A DNA stretch of 64,000 nt from Escherichia coli (GTDB lineage Bacteria > Pseudomonadota > Gammaproteobacteria > Enterobacterales > Enterobacteriaceae). The notes under the pieces are model-generated. The model did not search any database. It saw only the letters and a list, made by a program, of their open reading frames with translations, and had not been told where the DNA came from. The translations under genes were made by a program, and so were the position numbers. Of the stretch, positions 55,702 through 59,873 are shown one piece after another. Every line of letters begins with the position of its first letter. Positions within the stretch are counted from its first letter, which is position 1. The stretch lies in assembly GCF_051903065.1 (NCBI RefSeq), contig NZ_CP178438.1, one strand, 5' to 3'.

Positions 55702-55991
55702 GATCGTCTCTGGTTCAGGAAGTATTACAGGCAGTGTTGTGCAAATTTTGCGGATTATCAAATCCTTTTCTTCAACGCTATGTCATCGATCTTGTATCAC
55801 TTTTTTGCCGGAAGTTGTTTGTATTTTTATTGATGTGCAGATATTAGAATTGTCGTAATGTTATATACATGGCGTATTTTATTCTTACTGGTTCTACACA
55901 TGTTAATCGCATCTGATTGATCAGTTCACCTTAATAAGTTTAATAAATCGTACTGCACATAGTACAGTACGATGGTGGCTATATAATTGAT

Positions 55992-56642
55992 TTACATGAA
56001 GAATGGCTTATCGCCATCAGTCCCGGGTTGATTGATGCCTATATTCTCACCAATGTGTTTCTCAGGTTTATCGATGATATCTGTAATTAATGCTGCGACA
56101 CTCTTACGTGATACGATCGTACCTTTGAATGGTTCATTGCGTGAGGTAAGCTCATAATCAATAATATCTTCATCCGTCAGCCAGGCAGGGCGAAGAATTG
56201 TATAATCCAGTCCAGAAGCCTCAATTGCATCCGCAGCCCTGCGGAATGGTTTTAGGGGCTCACCAATAACTGCATTATTCCATTCGCCAAATTTTCCTGG
56301 AACTTCATCATAAATGCCGAGGGAAAGAACAAAGATCAGACGTTTAACATCACAGGCTTTCATCGCAGCGATCACTGAATTTGCCTGAATATCTAAATCT
56401 TCCCCCGTAAGGTTGGCATACACAATATCCTGTCCCTGCATGGCCTGCTTCAGTGCTGCATGATTCAGTACATCCCCCATAATAATCTGGCTATTAGTTG
56501 GATAGGGTTTGTGTATTTTTGCTGGCTGACGAGCAAATAAAGTTTGTTTAATGGTTTGTTTATCTGCCAGTTGATTAATCACATGGCGGGCTATCTGACC
56601 GCCAGCACCAAGAATGAGTACTTTTTTCATAATATTTCTCAT
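55992..56642 (-). CDS. ymjC: NAD(P)-binding (NmrA/SDR-like) protein, apparently intact ymjC homolog
   Basis: 216-aa ORF with Rossmann motif ILGAGGQIARH. Confidence 0.7.
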   Translation of the reverse strand: MRNIMKKVLILGAGGQIARHVINQLADKQTIKQTLFARQPAKIHKPYPTNSQIIMGDVLNHAALKQAMQGQDIVYANLTGEDLDIQANSVIAAMKACDVKRLIFVLSLGIYDEVPGKFGEWNNAVIGEPLKPFRRAADAIEASGLDYTILRPAWLTDEDIIDYELTSRNEPFKGTIVSRKSVAALITDIIDKPEKHIGENIGINQPGTDGDKPFFM

Positions 56643-56647
56643 GAAAC

Positions 56648-57580
56648 TTATCCCAGATGGGTGTTGAAAAAAGGAATAACTTTTTCCAGCGCCTCCTGAA
56701 CTGCTTCCGGTTTGTCATACAGTTCATAATGTGAGAAATCGGGTAATGAAACTAACTGACGATCCTGCGAAACCATCGCCCGGCCATAGACTTCCAGTCC
56801 ATCACGATAAGCACCGAAGGCACCGACTTTTTCACCAACTACTACCATCACCGGCTGAGTCAGTAACACTTCAGTAAATGCGAAGGCATCCCAGGCCAGC
56901 GTTTTCTGTGCATGTGAGAACAACATTTTTGTCGCACCTCCCGGTTGTTGCCCGCGTGGTGTTTTATAGTAGTCAGTTGCTTCATAAACATCGCGTTCGG
57001 TCAGTCCATGGGCTTTTGCTGCATCCAGGCTGGCGGGAAGTAATTCGTTGATCTGTAATTCTCCACCACGAGCCTCTTTGGTTCGTTGCGACGCCATTGC
57101 ATTCAATGCGCCAATCGGATCGTAATTGCTGAAACCTTCCCGAAAAAGACGCCCGATATTAACACCCGTAATACTCACTACAGCTTTAATTCGTTTTTCT
57201 GTCAGCGCGGCATTAATGGCATAGCCCCTCCCCCCACACACACCCAGCACGCCAATGCGTTCAGCATCAACATATGGCAGAGTTACTGCATAATCGATAA
57301 CACGGCTAATATCCTCTACGCGCTGTGTCGGATCTTCTATCCAACGAGGCTCCCCACCAGATTCTCCCTGGAAATTGGCGTCATAAGCGAGAACGACATA
57401 GCCTTTTTCAGCCAATGCCTTGCCATAGATATTGCCAGACGTCTGCTCCTTACAACTGCCAAAAGGATGGACGCTGATAATCGCCGGATACTGTTTTGAC
57501 TCATCAAAATTTGGTGGAAACTGAATATTGGCAGCAATATGCCAGGCCATATCACTATTGCGGATTTGAATATGTTTCAT
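56648..57580 (-). CDS. Alpha/beta hydrolase (dienelactone-hydrolase-like, Cys nucleophile GVCGG)
   Basis: 310-aa ORF; paralog of the adjacent upstream gene. Confidence 0.75.
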   Translation of the reverse strand: MKHIQIRNSDMAWHIAANIQFPPNFDESKQYPAIISVHPFGSCKEQTSGNIYGKALAEKGYVVLAYDANFQGESGGEPRWIEDPTQRVEDISRVIDYAVTLPYVDAERIGVLGVCGGRGYAINAALTEKRIKAVVSITGVNIGRLFREGFSNYDPIGALNAMASQRTKEARGGELQINELLPASLDAAKAHGLTERDVYEATDYYKTPRGQQPGGATKMLFSHAQKTLAWDAFAFTEVLLTQPVMVVVGEKVGAFGAYRDGLEVYGRAMVSQDRQLVSLPDFSHYELYDKPEAVQEALEKVIPFFNTHLG

Positions 57581-58512
57581 TACAGAGTTTCCTCAAAGAA
57601 CGGAGCTAATACTGAAATTGCTTCAGCCACATAGGCTTTGCCGTCATAAAGATCCATATGGTTTGCGCCTTCAACAATGTGATAGCGTTTATCCTGGCTT
57701 GATGCCCGATCGTACAGGTCGTCACTCATCCATTTGCTCCCTGCCTGGCTGCCCGCCACAATCTGCATCGGCTGAGTCAGGTACACTTCCGCCATATGGT
57801 AAGCATCATAGGTAATAATCTGGTTAAGGCTGCGCAAAGTAGCGTAACCCGGTGCTGTTGGATACTGCGCACGAGGGGTGTGGTAATACTCCCAGGCCTG
57901 ACGCAGTTCTTCGTTCGGCGCATCGGCCTCCTTCATTGGAGCCAGTGGCATAATGGCGTATTCTTCGCTGCTAATATCGCTGGTTCGGGCGTTTGAGCCA
58001 GCTTCAATGTGTGGCAGAGCATCAATAGATTTCACATTGTTTTCCCAACCATTGCGGAACATCGAACCAATATTGACCGCACTAACGGTACCGATGGCCT
58101 TGATGCGGCGATCCTGAATTGCAGCATTGGCTGTATATCCTGCACCGGCACAAATTCCCATCGCACCAATTCGGGTATTGTCGACATAAGAAAGCGTTGT
58201 CAGGTAATCAATCACGGCACTGATGTCTTCAGTACGAATGTATGGGTTTTCTAACTGACGCGGCTCGCCGCCACTTTCACCCTGATAAGATGCGTCATAA
58301 GCAATAGTGACAAATCCCTTTTCCGCCAGTTTTTCGGCATAGGTCCCGGCCGTTTGTTCTTTAACGCCCCCACCTGGGTGAGATACCACAATTGCCGGAT
58401 ATTGACGGGTTTCATCAAATTTTGGAGGAAAATAGATCACTGCAGACAAAGAGATGGTTGGATTATTGCTGTTAGTGAAGCTGACTTTATTATTCATCAT
58501 TCCGTTCCTCAT
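57580..58512 (-). CDS. ycjY: Alpha/beta hydrolase (dienelactone-hydrolase-like, GICAG), ycjY-like
   Basis: 310-aa ORF; TAATG stop/start overlap with the downstream paralog. Confidence 0.7.
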   Translation of the reverse strand: MRNGMMNNKVSFTNSNNPTISLSAVIYFPPKFDETRQYPAIVVSHPGGGVKEQTAGTYAEKLAEKGFVTIAYDASYQGESGGEPRQLENPYIRTEDISAVIDYLTTLSYVDNTRIGAMGICAGAGYTANAAIQDRRIKAIGTVSAVNIGSMFRNGWENNVKSIDALPHIEAGSNARTSDISSEEYAIMPLAPMKEADAPNEELRQAWEYYHTPRAQYPTAPGYATLRSLNQIITYDAYHMAEVYLTQPMQIVAGSQAGSKWMSDDLYDRASSQDKRYHIVEGANHMDLYDGKAYVAEAISVLAPFFEETL

Positions 58513-58570
58513 GGAGTTGTTGGTTCGTTTTAACGGTTGGTGATATCACTATAGATATTGATCATTAAGT

Positions 58571-58615
58571 TGATTAGACCCAAAATCATGATTAGACCTA
58601 TCATTTAAATGATTA
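58571..58615. promoter_or_regulatory. pgrR divergent control region: direct repeat TGATTAGACC x2 plus palindrome ATCATTTAAATGAT (T-N11-A type)
   Basis: Read directly; sits between divergent hydrolase operon and pgrR. Confidence 0.5.
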
Positions 58616-58637
58616 ATAGATTGTATGGAGATACTGA

Positions 58638-59537
58638 ATGAAGCGTGAAGAGATCGCTGATCTGATGGCGTTTGTCGTCGTTGCAGAGGAGCGTAGCTTC
58701 ACTCGAGCAGCAGCCCGCCTGAGCATGGCGCAGTCAGCTTTAAGCCAGATAGTGCGCCGTATAGAAGAACGATTGGGATTGCGGCTTCTGACGCGAACTA
58801 CGCGCAGCGTTGTACCAACTGAAGCGGGCGAGCATCTTTTGTCTGTTCTTGGCCCTATGTTGCATGACATAGATTCTGCCCTGACATCCCTGAGCGATCT
58901 GCAGAACCGCCCATCCGGGACAATACGTATTACTACTGTAGAACATGCAGCAAAAACGATATTGTTACCAGCCATGCGCACATTCCTGAGATCGCATCCT
59001 GAAATTGATATTCAGCTCACCATTGATTATGGTTTGACCGATGTCGTTTCTGAACGTTTTGATGCAGGCGTCCGTCTGGGTGGGGAGATGGATAAAGATA
59101 TGATCGCCATTCGAATCGGGCCAGATATACCAATGGCTATTGTTGGCTCACCGGATTATTTTTCTCGCCGAAGTGTTCCAACGTCAGTGTCACAATTAAT
59201 AGATCATCAGGCAATTAATTTGTATCTTCCCACATCGGGTACAGCAAATCGCTGGAGATTAATACGCGGTGGACGTGAAGTTCGTGTTCGCATGGAAGGT
59301 CAGCTTTTACTGAATACGATAGACCTGATCATTGATGCTGCAATTGATGGGCATGGATTGGCGTATCTACCTTATGATCAGGTTGAGCGGGCTATTAAAG
59401 AAAAAAAACTGATACGTGTTTTGGATAAATTCACACCAGATTTACCCGGTTATCACCTGTACTATCCACACCGTCGACATGCTGGCTCGGCATTCTCATT
59501 ATTTATAGATAGGCTGAAGTATAAAGGTGCTGTTTAG
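58638..59537 (+). CDS. pgrR: LysR-family transcriptional regulator
   Basis: 299-aa ORF with N-terminal HTH (FTRAAARLSMAQSALSQ); recognised as PgrR/YcjZ. Confidence 0.85.
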   Translation: MKREEIADLMAFVVVAEERSFTRAAARLSMAQSALSQIVRRIEERLGLRLLTRTTRSVVPTEAGEHLLSVLGPMLHDIDSALTSLSDLQNRPSGTIRITTVEHAAKTILLPAMRTFLRSHPEIDIQLTIDYGLTDVVSERFDAGVRLGGEMDKDMIAIRIGPDIPMAIVGSPDYFSRRSVPTSVSQLIDHQAINLYLPTSGTANRWRLIRGGREVRVRMEGQLLLNTIDLIIDAAIDGHGLAYLPYDQVERAIKEKKLIRVLDKFTPDLPGYHLYYPHRRHAGSAFSLFIDRLKYKGAV

Positions 59538-59873
59538 CACTACTTGCTGATACATTAATTTAATTCTTCTCTTAACGTATTCTCAGTTCCTTTCAACGTT
59601 TTGGTTATTTTTTATTCTTCGTACAATGGCGACAGATGCTGATTATGATACCGAAAACTGGTTTGAACGTGTGAAGCCCGAACGTAGTGTTCGGTGTTCT
59701 ATGTGCTTTGCCGCATTTTGGCGTCTATTATTTACACTAAATATGATTTAATATATTGATACATAAAACATTTTATGCTTCCTGTGTCACTTTTTTGATG
59801 GAAGTTGTTTGCATTTCTTTAAGGCGAAACAAATAATTACGCATCAATTTTAATGTCGGTTAGAGGGAAACTT

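Follow-up and report, generated by a model that had tools for sequence, protein, structure and literature searches.

The window analysed here, a 64,000-nt stretch of Escherichia coli contig NZ_CP178438.1 (assembly GCF_051903065.1), carries three consecutive minus-strand genes and the divergent LysR-type regulator gene pgrR (ycjZ) between mppA and mpaA (Table 1). The first two, ycjY (H1) and a gene designated H2 here, encode paralogs (42% identity over 299 amino acids, E = 2e-78) which are cytoplasmic alpha/beta-hydrolases with cysteine replacing serine in the nucleophile elbow; the Cys codon of ycjY (motif GICAG) occupies 58150-58152. They are translationally coupled, the TAA of ycjY (57582-57580) and the ATG of H2 (57580-57578) sharing one base. 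The third gene encodes an atypical short-chain dehydrogenase/reductase (SDR). Curated starts differ slightly from those of the longest frames: RefSeq/PGAP and PDB entry 5XB6 begin ycjY four codons downstream, at 58500 (306 aa), and RefSeq/PGAP, which names the third product 'SDR family oxidoreductase', begins it at the second ATG, 56630 (212 aa). The initial annotation had described two 310-aa Cys-elbow paralogs (GICAG and GVCGG) overlapping by TAATG and followed by a 216-aa NAD(P)-binding protein gene. The open reading frames, the identity of the paralogs and the match of the third product to PF13460 (NAD_binding_10, E = 1e-54 over residues 12-193) all agree with this description, and re-inspection for premature stops gave none in the three frames.

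Table 1. Features of the pgrR-ycjY-H2-reductase locus (window coordinates)
Feature	Position	Strand	Description
Direct repeat, left copy	55790-55826	+	37 nt; segment of the mppA-mpaA spacer, present twice
Terminator-like hairpin	55947-55973	-	12-bp stem then UUUAUU; ~20 nt past the reductase stop
Reductase (intact ymjC)	55992-56642	-	216 aa from first ATG; NmrA / NAD_binding_10 atypical SDR
H2 (full-length form of K-12 ymjD)	56648-57580	-	310-aa Cys-nucleophile alpha/beta-hydrolase, LGVCGGRGY
H2 codons 115-119	57224-57238	-	TGT GGG GGG AGG GGC (C-G-G-R-G); catalytic Cys and interrupted G run
ycjY/H2 stop/start overlap, TAATG	57578-57582	-	GAGG 10 nt upstream of ATG
ycjY (H1)	57580-58512	-	310-aa ORF with MGICAGAGY; Cys-nucleophile alpha/beta-hydrolase; RefSeq annotation
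Divergent promoter/operator region, ycjY-pgrR	58501-58637	n/a	Contains the palindrome ATCATTTAAATGAT, and TGATTAGACC twice
pgrR (ycjZ)	58638-59537	+	LysR-type regulator of the cassette; ORF and RefSeq annotation
Direct repeat, right copy	59780-59816	+	37 nt; insert end, just upstream of mppA

The corresponding region of E. coli K-12 is the same locus, with orthologous ycjY and pgrR and 97-98% DNA identity over the shared parts. Unlike K-12, the window encodes the second hydrolase and the reductase at full length and keeps the hairpin that ends the operon. Alignment with K-12 reveals losses of 867 bp and 660 bp, consistent with the K-12 state given in the initial annotation (ycjY plus ymjD and ymjC fragments). 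The larger (window 56659-57525) is an in-frame deletion that spares 18 codons at the start of H2 and 3 at its end, leaving MKHIQIRNSDMDWHIAANNLG*, the 21-aa YmjD. The smaller (55832-56491) removes most of the reductase gene together with the hairpin and leaves a 138-nt stub, K-12 ymjC representing approximately the first 46 reductase codons. Microhomology amounts to 2 nt at one junction and 4 nt at the other, and the window contains an additional 12 bp at the reductase start. Because the K-12 remnant retains both ends of H2, and because Serratia and Klebsiella share the gene order and the TAATG junction, the window state is the parent, from which the K-12 state was derived by two deletions. 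EcoGene/EcoCyc already list the K-12 ymjD and ymjC as deletion remnants. Unequal crossing-over between the paralogs was rejected as the origin of the H2 loss since the junction lies inside H2 (codon 18 to 308), involves only 2 nt of microhomology and leaves ycjY untouched.

The pgrR-ycjY-H2-reductase block forms a 3.95-kb insert (window about 55827-59779) between mppA and mpaA. In Citrobacter and Enterobacter these two genes are neighbours, 185 bp apart, and both edges of the insert align to the Citrobacter mppA-mpaA spacer. A repeat search identified the flanking 37-nt direct repeats (86% identical, spacing 3990), a sequence present in single copy in the Citrobacter spacer, and the GC content over the block is 41-50% versus 52-54% in ycjG/mpaA. 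A site empty in close relatives, a target duplication and atypical GC are the properties of a horizontally inserted genomic islet. The E. coli copy contains no integrase or transposase; a resolvase adjoins the Klebsiella copy. The cassette was acquired in the Escherichia lineage through insertion into the short spacer separating the divergent mppA and mpaA, with duplication of 37 nt. The arrangement had been called ancestral, which is accurate within Escherichia, where the K-12 state descends from it, but not beyond, where the block is an insertion between two adjacent genes. The possibility that the 37-nt repeat is a sigma-54 promoter was discarded on inspection of the sequence, the spacing being GG-N9-GC and not GG-N10-GC.

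The cassette is widespread in Alpha- and Gammaproteobacteria, together with its regulator and operator. The order LysR/H1/H2(/SDR) also occurs in Serratia marcescens, Klebsiella variicola and Afipia carboxidovorans, with protein identities of 74-88% for the divergent LysR (Serratia, Klebsiella and Afipia genes), 80-92% for H1, 81-86% for H2 and 68-85% for the SDR. The enterobacterial cassettes are colinear at the DNA level (76-79% identity); Serratia and Klebsiella share the TAATG junction, and Afipia has a 58-nt gap there. A genome scan found H1 directly adjoining H2 in ~27 of 36 loci, with a divergent LysR gene wherever the DNA fetched extends far enough. None of the 36 loci from other genera has mpaA, ycjG or mppA beside the cassette, Escherichia alone having them. 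Many cassettes lack the reductase or have a truncated form of it, so that hydrolysis and reduction are not an obligatory pair. In Serratia and Klebsiella the cassette includes further genes encoding two SDRs, a flavodoxin-like protein and an OYE ene-reductase; Pfam and NCBIfam gave only generic SDR, flavodoxin and OYE names for these and no clue to a pathway.

The pgrR and ycjY genes diverge from a region of 137 bp (from the curated ycjY start). Its ATTMATCA..AATGATARG and GTCTAATC blocks are conserved from E. coli to the Alphaproteobacteria: ATCA-N6-TGAT and GTCTAATC are kept across 11 cassettes from two classes, as expected of a divergent operon controlled by a LysR-type regulator through a palindromic, T-N11-A-like site in the spacer. 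Binding of PgrR at ycjY/ycjZ in SELEX experiments and negative autoregulation have been reported (PMC5934670, PMC10505187).

At the other end of the operon, the reductase carries the Rossmann GxxGxxG signature (LILGAGGQIA) at its N-terminus, characteristic of NmrA / NAD_binding_10 atypical SDRs. Within the NmrA/BVR-B/ChuY group of SDRs (3QVO, 5FFQ, 1HDO) it is essentially 3QVO, deposited as 'NmrA family protein' (E = 8e-138). It is next closest to ChuY/ShuY and biliverdin-IXbeta/flavin reductase, with which the Rossmann motif is shared; ChuY is only distantly related (E about 4e-7). A simple terminator scan detected no hairpin past the reductase gene, the tail not being a clean T-run, but RNA folding did: the segment 55925-55995(-) folds with -19.3 kcal/mol (z = -3.6, 0/200 shuffles as good). 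The hairpin lies inside the segment deleted from K-12, and homology with the Klebsiella cassette runs through it, to 55921. Since the undeleted operon is set apart from mpaA by this strong hairpin, co-transcription of mpaA may be a by-product of the K-12 type of deletion.

The full-length arrangement is already known and is ordinary, not rare, in E. coli. Among 5,426 complete E. coli genomes, the locus was found in 5,242, the body of the reductase gene in 2,942 and that of H2 in 1,282, where it is annotated in RefSeq. The full-length locus is thus carried by approximately one in four sequenced E. coli, and H2 is unbroken in ~18%. Escherichia sp. E4742 has the full form, and E1V33 that of K-12. 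Strain SE11 (H2 WP_000680607.1; reductase WP_000800177.1) shows the same three-gene order and TAATG junction as the window. Genes annotated in >1,000 RefSeq genomes, with crystal structures for both YcjY and the reductase, make the observation itself of little novelty.

In E. coli, H2 is a decaying gene that has been inactivated repeatedly and independently. The 867-bp deletion is present in ~73% of the complete genomes. O157:H7, which has the full-length locus type like the window but with H2 frameshifted, and O55:H7 carry poly-G frameshifts in the catalytic-Cys motif (G9 and G10 alleles, the lengths being those given by many independent assemblies). O145:H28 has the nonsense codon Q71* and E110019 an indel. 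As most E. coli have lost H2, any function it performs is dispensable in the species. The locus illustrates in compact form the stepwise decay of an acquired cassette, through a deletion, frameshifts in a homopolymer, a nonsense codon and missense changes.

The H2 allele of the window differs from that of SE11 by S69N and, in the elbow, by GGRG instead of GGGG (G118R). In a residue-conservation alignment of 41 sequences (31-98% identity), position 118 holds Gly in 37 sequences, Ala in 3 and Arg in the window alone, making the second elbow, GVCGG-R-GY, unique among the family members sampled; N at residue 69 likewise occurs in 1/41. Position 118 falls in the first turn of the helix following the nucleophile in the AlphaFold model, and the rule of small residues after the nucleophile (C-x-G-G-G-Y) is obeyed by H1 and broken by H2 of the window (Arg118). 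The exact allele occurs in 1 of the 5,426 complete genomes and, in a large contig collection, on 8 contigs, whereas the SE11 allele is on 1,000 or more. Judged from these substitutions, H2 of the window has an open frame yet is probably impaired by G118R, and its activity is doubtful. Of the initial suggestion that the module is possibly functional, the intact frames stand; the two substitutions and the repeated inactivation of H2 in E. coli make the second hydrolase doubtful.

A stronger version holds that the module of this strain has lost part of its function, H2 being an early-stage pseudogene whose enzyme is dead or crippled by G118R together with S69N. Rare substitutions at conserved positions, the scarcity of the allele and the loss of H2 across the species (deletion, G9/G10 frameshifts, E110019 indel, Q71*) fit this reading, which we regard as a serious possibility, a little short of an even chance. 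Weighing against it, the 310-codon frame is intact, Cys115 and His284 are retained and the effect of G118R is a prediction. Moreover, the G-to-A change interrupts a slippery G run and could equally stabilise the frame.

The G run itself raises the question of whether H2 could be phase-variable, a contingency gene whose expression is toggled by poly-G slippage after the catalytic-Cys codon. In the allele alignment, the equivalent of G6-A-G4 of the window is an unbroken G8-G11 run causing frameshifts in other strains. About 394 of the 5,426 genomes have such an uninterrupted tract (approximately 70 with G8, 212 with G9 and 73 with G10, plus G11). Its length differs among near-identical O145 isolates (G9 in RM9872, G8 in RM9873-C1 and RM9467-C1), and O157:H7 strains span G8 to G11. 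However, homopolymer length is a classic long-read assembly error, and part of this variation may be artefactual. Tract-bearing genomes are mostly out of frame, and some of those in frame carry other lesions such as Q71*. Furthermore, 877 genomes have the non-slippery version GGGGGTGGTGG, and H2 of other genera encodes the glycine motif with GGC/GGT codons. A contingency locus is recognised by an uninterrupted homopolymer within the open reading frame, reversibly variable in length within a clone; the tract of the window is interrupted and cannot switch. Phase variation is therefore improbable, the simpler reading being that a mutational hazard arose from one synonymous change, GGT to GGG: a single silent substitution can produce a slippery G8 run within an active-site motif.

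As regards the fold, H1 and H2 can be assigned from sequence and modelling to the alpha/beta-hydrolases of the YcjY/PA2218 (COG1073-like) subfamily. H1 is ~97% identical to 5XB6 (YcjY; E = 1.4e-200), which H2 matches with E = 1.1e-67. The AlphaFold model of H2 (pLDDT 94.9) has a TM-score of 0.91 to 5XB6 and 0.86 to 2HDW (PA2218). Above Pfam gathering cut-offs, H1 matches S15, DLH, Hydrolase_4, Abhydrolase_1 and S9, and H2 matches S15, DLH, S9, AXE1 and BAAT_C, with Hydrolase_4, Abhydrolase_1 and PETase just below. NCBIfam gave only sub-threshold matches for both hydrolases and the reductase. In the 41-sequence alignment the nucleophile column is Cys in 36 sequences, and His284 and Asp67 are each present in 40. 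In the H2 model, C115 is located between strand 104-114 and helix 116-127 and His284 follows strand 274-283. The canonical acid positions after beta7 (250-253) are not conserved (E/S/D/T; G/D), the conserved acids being D67 and D/E286. Membership of the S9/S15 serine peptidases was rejected: the nucleophile is Cys, not Ser, and the S9 match is confined to ~75 residues around the elbow. The characterised structures nearest to the H2 model, YcjY and PA2218 aside, are DcsB, a thioesterase/lactonising enzyme, GrgF, PET46, feruloyl esterases and monoglyceride lipases. Both 5XB6 and 2HDW are structural-genomics proteins without assigned function; literature searches returned no biochemical or functional study for 5XB6, PA2218, ycjY, ymjC or ymjD, and no member of the hydrolase family has a demonstrated substrate.

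A useful point of comparison is dienelactone hydrolase (ClcD/TfdE type, PF01738, EC 3.1.1.45), which shares with H1 and H2 the alpha/beta fold, the G-x-C-x-G motif and the catalytic His, and whose pathway has a similar logic of hydrolysis followed by NAD(P)H-dependent reduction. There are also differences. The dienelactone hydrolase profile, although above its gathering cut-off, covers only the N-terminal half of H1 and H2 (11-123 of 217), and in these ~90 additional residues (roughly 142-240) form a helical insertion not present in dienelactone hydrolase. Its triad is Cys-His-Asp, and the matching acid is not identifiable in H1/H2. No chloroaromatic pathway genes are found near the cassette.

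The observed gene content, deletions, insertion, conservation as far as the Alphaproteobacteria and repeated inactivation of H2 are those of an undeleted, inserted and self-contained pgrR-ycjY-ymjD-ymjC locus, an explanation which we consider very probable overall. The likeliest function, though at well under an even chance, is one in which, by analogy with dienelactone hydrolase, ester, thioester or lactone hydrolysis plus reduction is controlled by PgrR. PgrR would sense a small molecule and de-repress the ycjY-H2-reductase operon; H1 and H2 would cleave an ester or thioester, or open an (unsaturated) lactone, via a Cys-His acyl-enzyme; and the NmrA-type reductase would reduce the product, the two extra SDRs, flavodoxin-like protein and OYE ene-reductase adding to reduction in Serratia and Klebsiella. 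The cassette would then be a catabolic or detoxification block rather than a peptidoglycan-recycling module. A more elaborate form of this idea, possible but on balance unlikely, is that of a mobile, self-regulated Alpha/Gamma cassette whose two Cys-hydrolases cooperate on an ester- or lactone-type compound, either in successive steps or within a hetero-oligomer. The peptidoglycan label of PgrR and YcjY would in that case be an accident of K-12, due to the landing site and then to the terminator deletion fusing the transcript to mpaA.

The principal functional alternative is that the hydrolases are peptidoglycan-recycling peptidases or amidases acting on murein peptides and working with MpaA. 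The PgrR regulon (Shimada 2013) is listed in PMC5934670 as ycjG, ycjXF-tyrR and ycjY-ymjDC-mpaA, and PMC5934670 and PMC5210515 tie PgrR and the K-12 unit ycjY-ymjD-ymjC-mpaA to the degradation of peptidoglycan peptides. EcoCyc places pgrR under 'peptidoglycan degradation' (PMC5210515), YcjY is labelled '(putative) peptidoglycan degradation' (PMC12711010), and over-expression of ycjY leads to filamentation (PMC3614548). The peptidase families S15 and S9 are also among the best Pfam matches. However, those families are defined by a Ser nucleophile, not Cys, and the characterised proteins closest in fold are esterases and thioesterases. The block was inserted between mppA and mpaA, and where it is undeleted a strong hairpin lies between its operon and mpaA. 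The cassette, its regulator and its operator are maintained in genera without mpaA, mppA or ycjG nearby, which also speaks against the earlier suggestion of a tie to mpaA and peptidoglycan-derived substrates. A role in peptidoglycan recycling consequently seems unlikely. Current interpretations of YcjY and PgrR draw on the proximity of mpaA, and that proximity is a product of insertion. Since the cassette travels without cell-wall genes, a strain with the full cassette and non-peptidoglycan substrates would suit work on YcjY.

Compared with the tentative hydrolysis-plus-reduction scheme, two further proposals fare poorly. The closest curated family of both hydrolases in NCBIfam is the N-acyl-homoserine lactone (AHL) lactonase UilS (NF047920; E = 6e-25 for H1 and 9e-21 for H2), the quorum-quenching lactonase of Serratia and the nearest characterised family by sequence. 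UilS, annotated as a dienelactone hydrolase, has been shown by experiment to be an AHL lactonase (PMC11633161); on this hypothesis H1 and H2 would be lactonases of the same type. Their scores of 88.5 and 74.8 bits are nevertheless about one fifth of the 400-bit cut-off, so that they are not members, and the cassette content (LysR, reductases) gives no hint of AHL signalling; this assignment is distinctly improbable. Finally, the proposal that YcjY-type proteins are polymerases of short-chain conjugated poly-3-hydroxybutyrate (cPHB), an old prediction from the GXCXG motif alone that a review (PMC3709699) reports for ycjY, ysgA and yghX, can practically be set aside, the nearest folds being hydrolases and a LysR-regulated mobile cassette with reductases being unlike PHA synthesis loci.

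The three ORFs flanked by mpaA and the LysR-type regulator gene pgrR are uninterrupted, and two 310-aa paralogs with a cysteine in the nucleophile elbow, their TAATG overlap and a 216-aa NAD(P)-binding gene are all present as initially annotated. The product of the first gene is YcjY (match to PDB 5XB6, E = 1.4e-200). Its paralog, referred to here as H2 (42% identity over 299 residues, E = 2e-78), is the full-length form of ymjD of E. coli K-12 MG1655. Both proteins match α/β-hydrolase profiles including Peptidase_S15, DLH and Hydrolase_4, with elbow motifs MGICAGAGY (YcjY) and LGVCGGRGY (H2). The genes overlap by one base (TAA 57582-57580, ATG 57580-57578), and a GAGG sequence lies 10 nt upstream of the H2 start. 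The third ORF, the intact form of K-12 ymjC, encodes a reductase of the NAD_binding_10 type (E = 1e-54) whose crystal structure is available (3QVO, E = 8e-138). Twelve extra bases (ATGAGAAATATT, 56631-56642) precede its start in full-length alleles compared with K-12 and intermediate-type alleles, giving rise to the alternative 216-aa reading.

Positions of the principal features of the locus and of the segments deleted in K-12
Feature	Position	Strand	Remarks
mpaA	54973-55701	minus	one flank of the three ORFs
37-nt direct repeat	55790-55826 and 59780-59816		86% identical; brackets the pgrR-ycjY-H2-reductase block
Second K-12 deletion	55832-56491		660 bp; TATT microhomology
Terminator-like hairpin	55947-55973	minus	just 3' of reductase stop; 12-bp stem, then UUUAUU
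Reductase ORF	55992-56642	minus	216 aa; 212 aa from curated start
H2 ORF	56648-57580	minus	310 aa; curated start also 310 aa
First K-12 deletion	~56659-57525		867 bp, in frame; AT microhomology at junction
ycjY ORF	57580-58512	minus	310 aa; 306 aa from curated start
pgrR/ycjZ (RefSeq), LysR gene	58638-59537	divergent from ycjY	other flank; followed by mppA and ynaI

Alignment to MG1655 reveals two gaps, in agreement with the initial statement that K-12 has only ycjY and remnants of ymjD and ymjC. The first deletion joins H2 codon 18 to the last three H2 codons, leaving MKHIQIRNSDMDWHIAANNLG*, the 21-aa YmjD. The second takes the C-terminal three quarters of the reductase together with 160 bp of downstream sequence; what remains is a stub of 138 nt, ymjC, flagged in RefSeq as an incomplete "NAD-dependent dehydratase". 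A third state is found in strain HET6, where the first deletion alone has occurred and ycjY and the ymjD remnant are accompanied by an intact reductase gene. The window locus is therefore the parent state of the K-12 remnants. This undeleted arrangement is common and catalogued. Among 5,426 complete E. coli genomes, 5,242 carry the locus, 1,282 (23.6%) the H2 body and 2,942 (54.2%) the reductase body; by subtraction, about 24% are full-length, 31% intermediate and 42% K-12-like. In RefSeq the full form carries the annotation "alpha/beta hydrolase (x2) | SDR family oxidoreductase", and the presence or absence of ymjC has been noted in pan-genome work (PMC9602453). Since the full and doubly deleted forms both occur in cryptic Escherichia (E4742 with H2 and reductase, E1V33 in the K-12 state), the insertion and the deletions are either old or have spread by recombination.

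The proposal of an ancestral module holds only with respect to these remnants, as the block is itself an insertion. The genes mppA and mpaA are direct, divergent neighbours in Citrobacter and Enterobacter, separated by 185 bp, with otherwise identical tyrR-tpx-ycjG-mpaA surroundings. When the Citrobacter spacer is aligned to the window, the match on the mpaA side extends as far as 55826 and that on the mppA side starts at 59787, about 30 nt of the spacer being shared by both matches. The 37-nt direct repeat is single-copy in this spacer, which indicates that the 3.95-kb segment enclosed by the two window copies, comprising the reductase gene, H2, ycjY, pgrR and short tails, was inserted between mppA and mpaA. 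Across the block the GC content drops to 41-50%, compared with 52-54% in ycjG and mpaA. On the pgrR side, the tail leading to the right repeat also contains a 75-nt RefSeq pseudogene fragment of "epoxyqueuosine reductase QueH" (window ~59635-59709; L003 6736-6810), which may be left over from DNA that flanked the cassette in the donor.

The same cassette is found in other genera. H2 homologs with 79-86% identity occur in Serratia, Klebsiella, Citrobacter and Shimwellia, and equally close ones in Alphaproteobacteria (Afipia carboxidovorans, Mesorhizobium, Agrobacterium, Sphingobium, Brevundimonas and others). S. marcescens, K. variicola and A. carboxidovorans share the order divergent LysR, YcjY-like hydrolase, H2-like hydrolase and NAD_binding_10 reductase, with respective identities to the E. 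coli proteins of 74-88%, 80-92%, 81-86% and 68-85%. In a scan of 36 loci from species-representative genomes, the two hydrolase genes directly adjoin in about 27, and a divergent LysR gene lies upstream of the first wherever the retrieved DNA extends far enough. The TAATG junction is kept in the Serratia and Klebsiella cassettes examined; in Afipia there is a 58-nt gap. Additional genes include one or two SDRs and an OYE-type flavoenzyme in Serratia and Klebsiella, and a flavodoxin-like protein also in Serratia. The initial annotation implied a tie to peptidoglycan through mpaA. However, none of mpaA, ycjG and mppA lies near the cassette outside Escherichia among these 36 loci, and in E. coli the block interrupts the mppA-mpaA spacer. 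A built-in functional link to murein-peptide recycling is thus not supported: the block is not a peptidoglycan module but an acquired two-hydrolase cassette under LysR control. The added value is modest, a re-reading of the context of YcjY and PgrR, and the locus provides an example of an acquired cassette decaying stepwise. A resolvase gene neighbours the cassette in K. variicola (L010 3359-3934) and a Gp49/HigB-like toxin-antitoxin pair in S. marcescens (L008 3251-3911), which fits a mobile context.

The reductase is the dispensable end of the cassette: several copies in Serratia, Citrobacter and Alphaproteobacteria lack the gene or carry it in truncated form. Internal deletions or truncations of this gene were observed in Citrobacter sp. 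Awk 4, Agrobacterium, Microvirga and Camelimonas, so E. coli is not alone in showing decay from the 3' end.

Two blocks of the pgrR-ycjY spacer, ATTMATCA..AATGATARG and GTCTAATC, are conserved from E. coli to Alphaproteobacteria; PgrR-type regulators therefore belong to the cassette. The conserved core is presumably the PgrR operator. In the window, the spacer (58556-58620) contains a palindrome, ATCATTTAAATGAT, and two copies of TGATTAGACC 18 nt apart. At the other end, the stable terminator-like hairpin (-19.3 kcal/mol, z = -3.6) belongs to the cassette, since the homology to the Klebsiella copy extends across it. It falls within the second K-12 deletion, whose left edge and the insert boundary are a few bases apart at most. 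A ycjY-ymjD-ymjC-mpaA transcription unit has been attributed to PgrR control in K-12 (PMC5934670). As the deletion removes the hairpin, it may be what extended this unit into mpaA, and the joint transcription of ycjY and mpaA in K-12 would then be a side effect of the deletion.

Besides the 867-bp deletion, H2 has been broken in several independent ways. It is annotated as frameshifted in RefSeq in O157:H7, O55:H7 and E110019, and the frameshifts sit exactly in the codons following the catalytic cysteine. After TGT, the in-frame allele of strain SE11 reads GGG GGT GGT GGC; O157:H7 has G9 then TGGC (+1), O55:H7 G10 then TGGC (+2), and E110019 has lost GT and carries G9 (-1). In other genera the CGGGGY motif is encoded by GGC and GGT codons; judging from the codons, one synonymous substitution, GGT to GGG, would suffice to produce a slippery G8 run. 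Among the 1,282 H2-bearing genomes, about 877 have the non-slippery SE11-type elbow and about 394 (O157:H7, O55:H7, O145 and others) an uninterrupted tract of G8 to G11: about 70 G8, 212 G9, 73 G10 and 39 others including G11, after subtraction of ~10 partial hits from each tract count. G11 adds one glycine and is annotated as intact. These counts leave roughly 950 genomes (about 18%) in which the H2 frame is not visibly broken at the elbow. Tract length varies even among near-identical isolates, reflecting either real hypermutability or homopolymer assembly error. A further independent inactivation occurs in O145:H28 RM13514, where the RefSeq "internal stop" is Q71* and the G tract is in frame.

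Of 41 members of the hydrolase family (31-98% identity), 36 have Cys as the nucleophile, and His284 and Asp67 are each conserved in 40; the canonical acid position after strand β7 is not conserved. In the AlphaFold model of H2 (pLDDT 94.9), Cys115 lies between strand 104-114 and helix 116-127. The model superposes on YcjY (TM 0.91) and PA2218 (TM 0.86); a literature search on 5XB6 and PA2218 yielded no functional study. Among the solved structures that come next are a Chloroflexus α/β-hydrolase, the lactonising thioesterase DcsB, GrgF, PET46, feruloyl esterases and monoglyceride lipases, all characterised enzymes except the first. The GXCXG box of YcjY was long ago taken as a putative cPHB polymerase signature (PMC3709699). 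By sequence, the AHL lactonase UilS is the nearest curated family, but the proteins score 75-88 bits where 400 are required, and so do not belong to it. Fold, motif and gene neighbourhood allow a tentative and rather doubtful scheme in which LysR-induced hydrolases would cleave an ester, thioester or lactone through a Cys-His acyl-enzyme, followed by NAD(P)H-dependent reduction.

The suggestion that the window genes may be functional is uncertain for H2 in this strain; ycjY and the reductase look normal. At 57224-57238 H2 reads TGT GGG GGG AGG GGC (C-G-G-R-G), in frame, the G run being interrupted by A. The resulting Arg118, placed by the AlphaFold model in the first turn of the helix that follows the nucleophile, occupies a column in which 37 of the 41 sequences have Gly and 3 have Ala; this active-site substitution is suspicious. 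The protein also carries S69N within the conserved DASFQGESGG block. The allele is rare: of the 5,426 genomes, a single one has its exact elbow sequence, that of strain 23CRST027, which matches the entire 2.7-kb query at 100% identity. The exact protein is found on 8 contigs of a large collection, whereas the SE11 allele is on at least 1,000.
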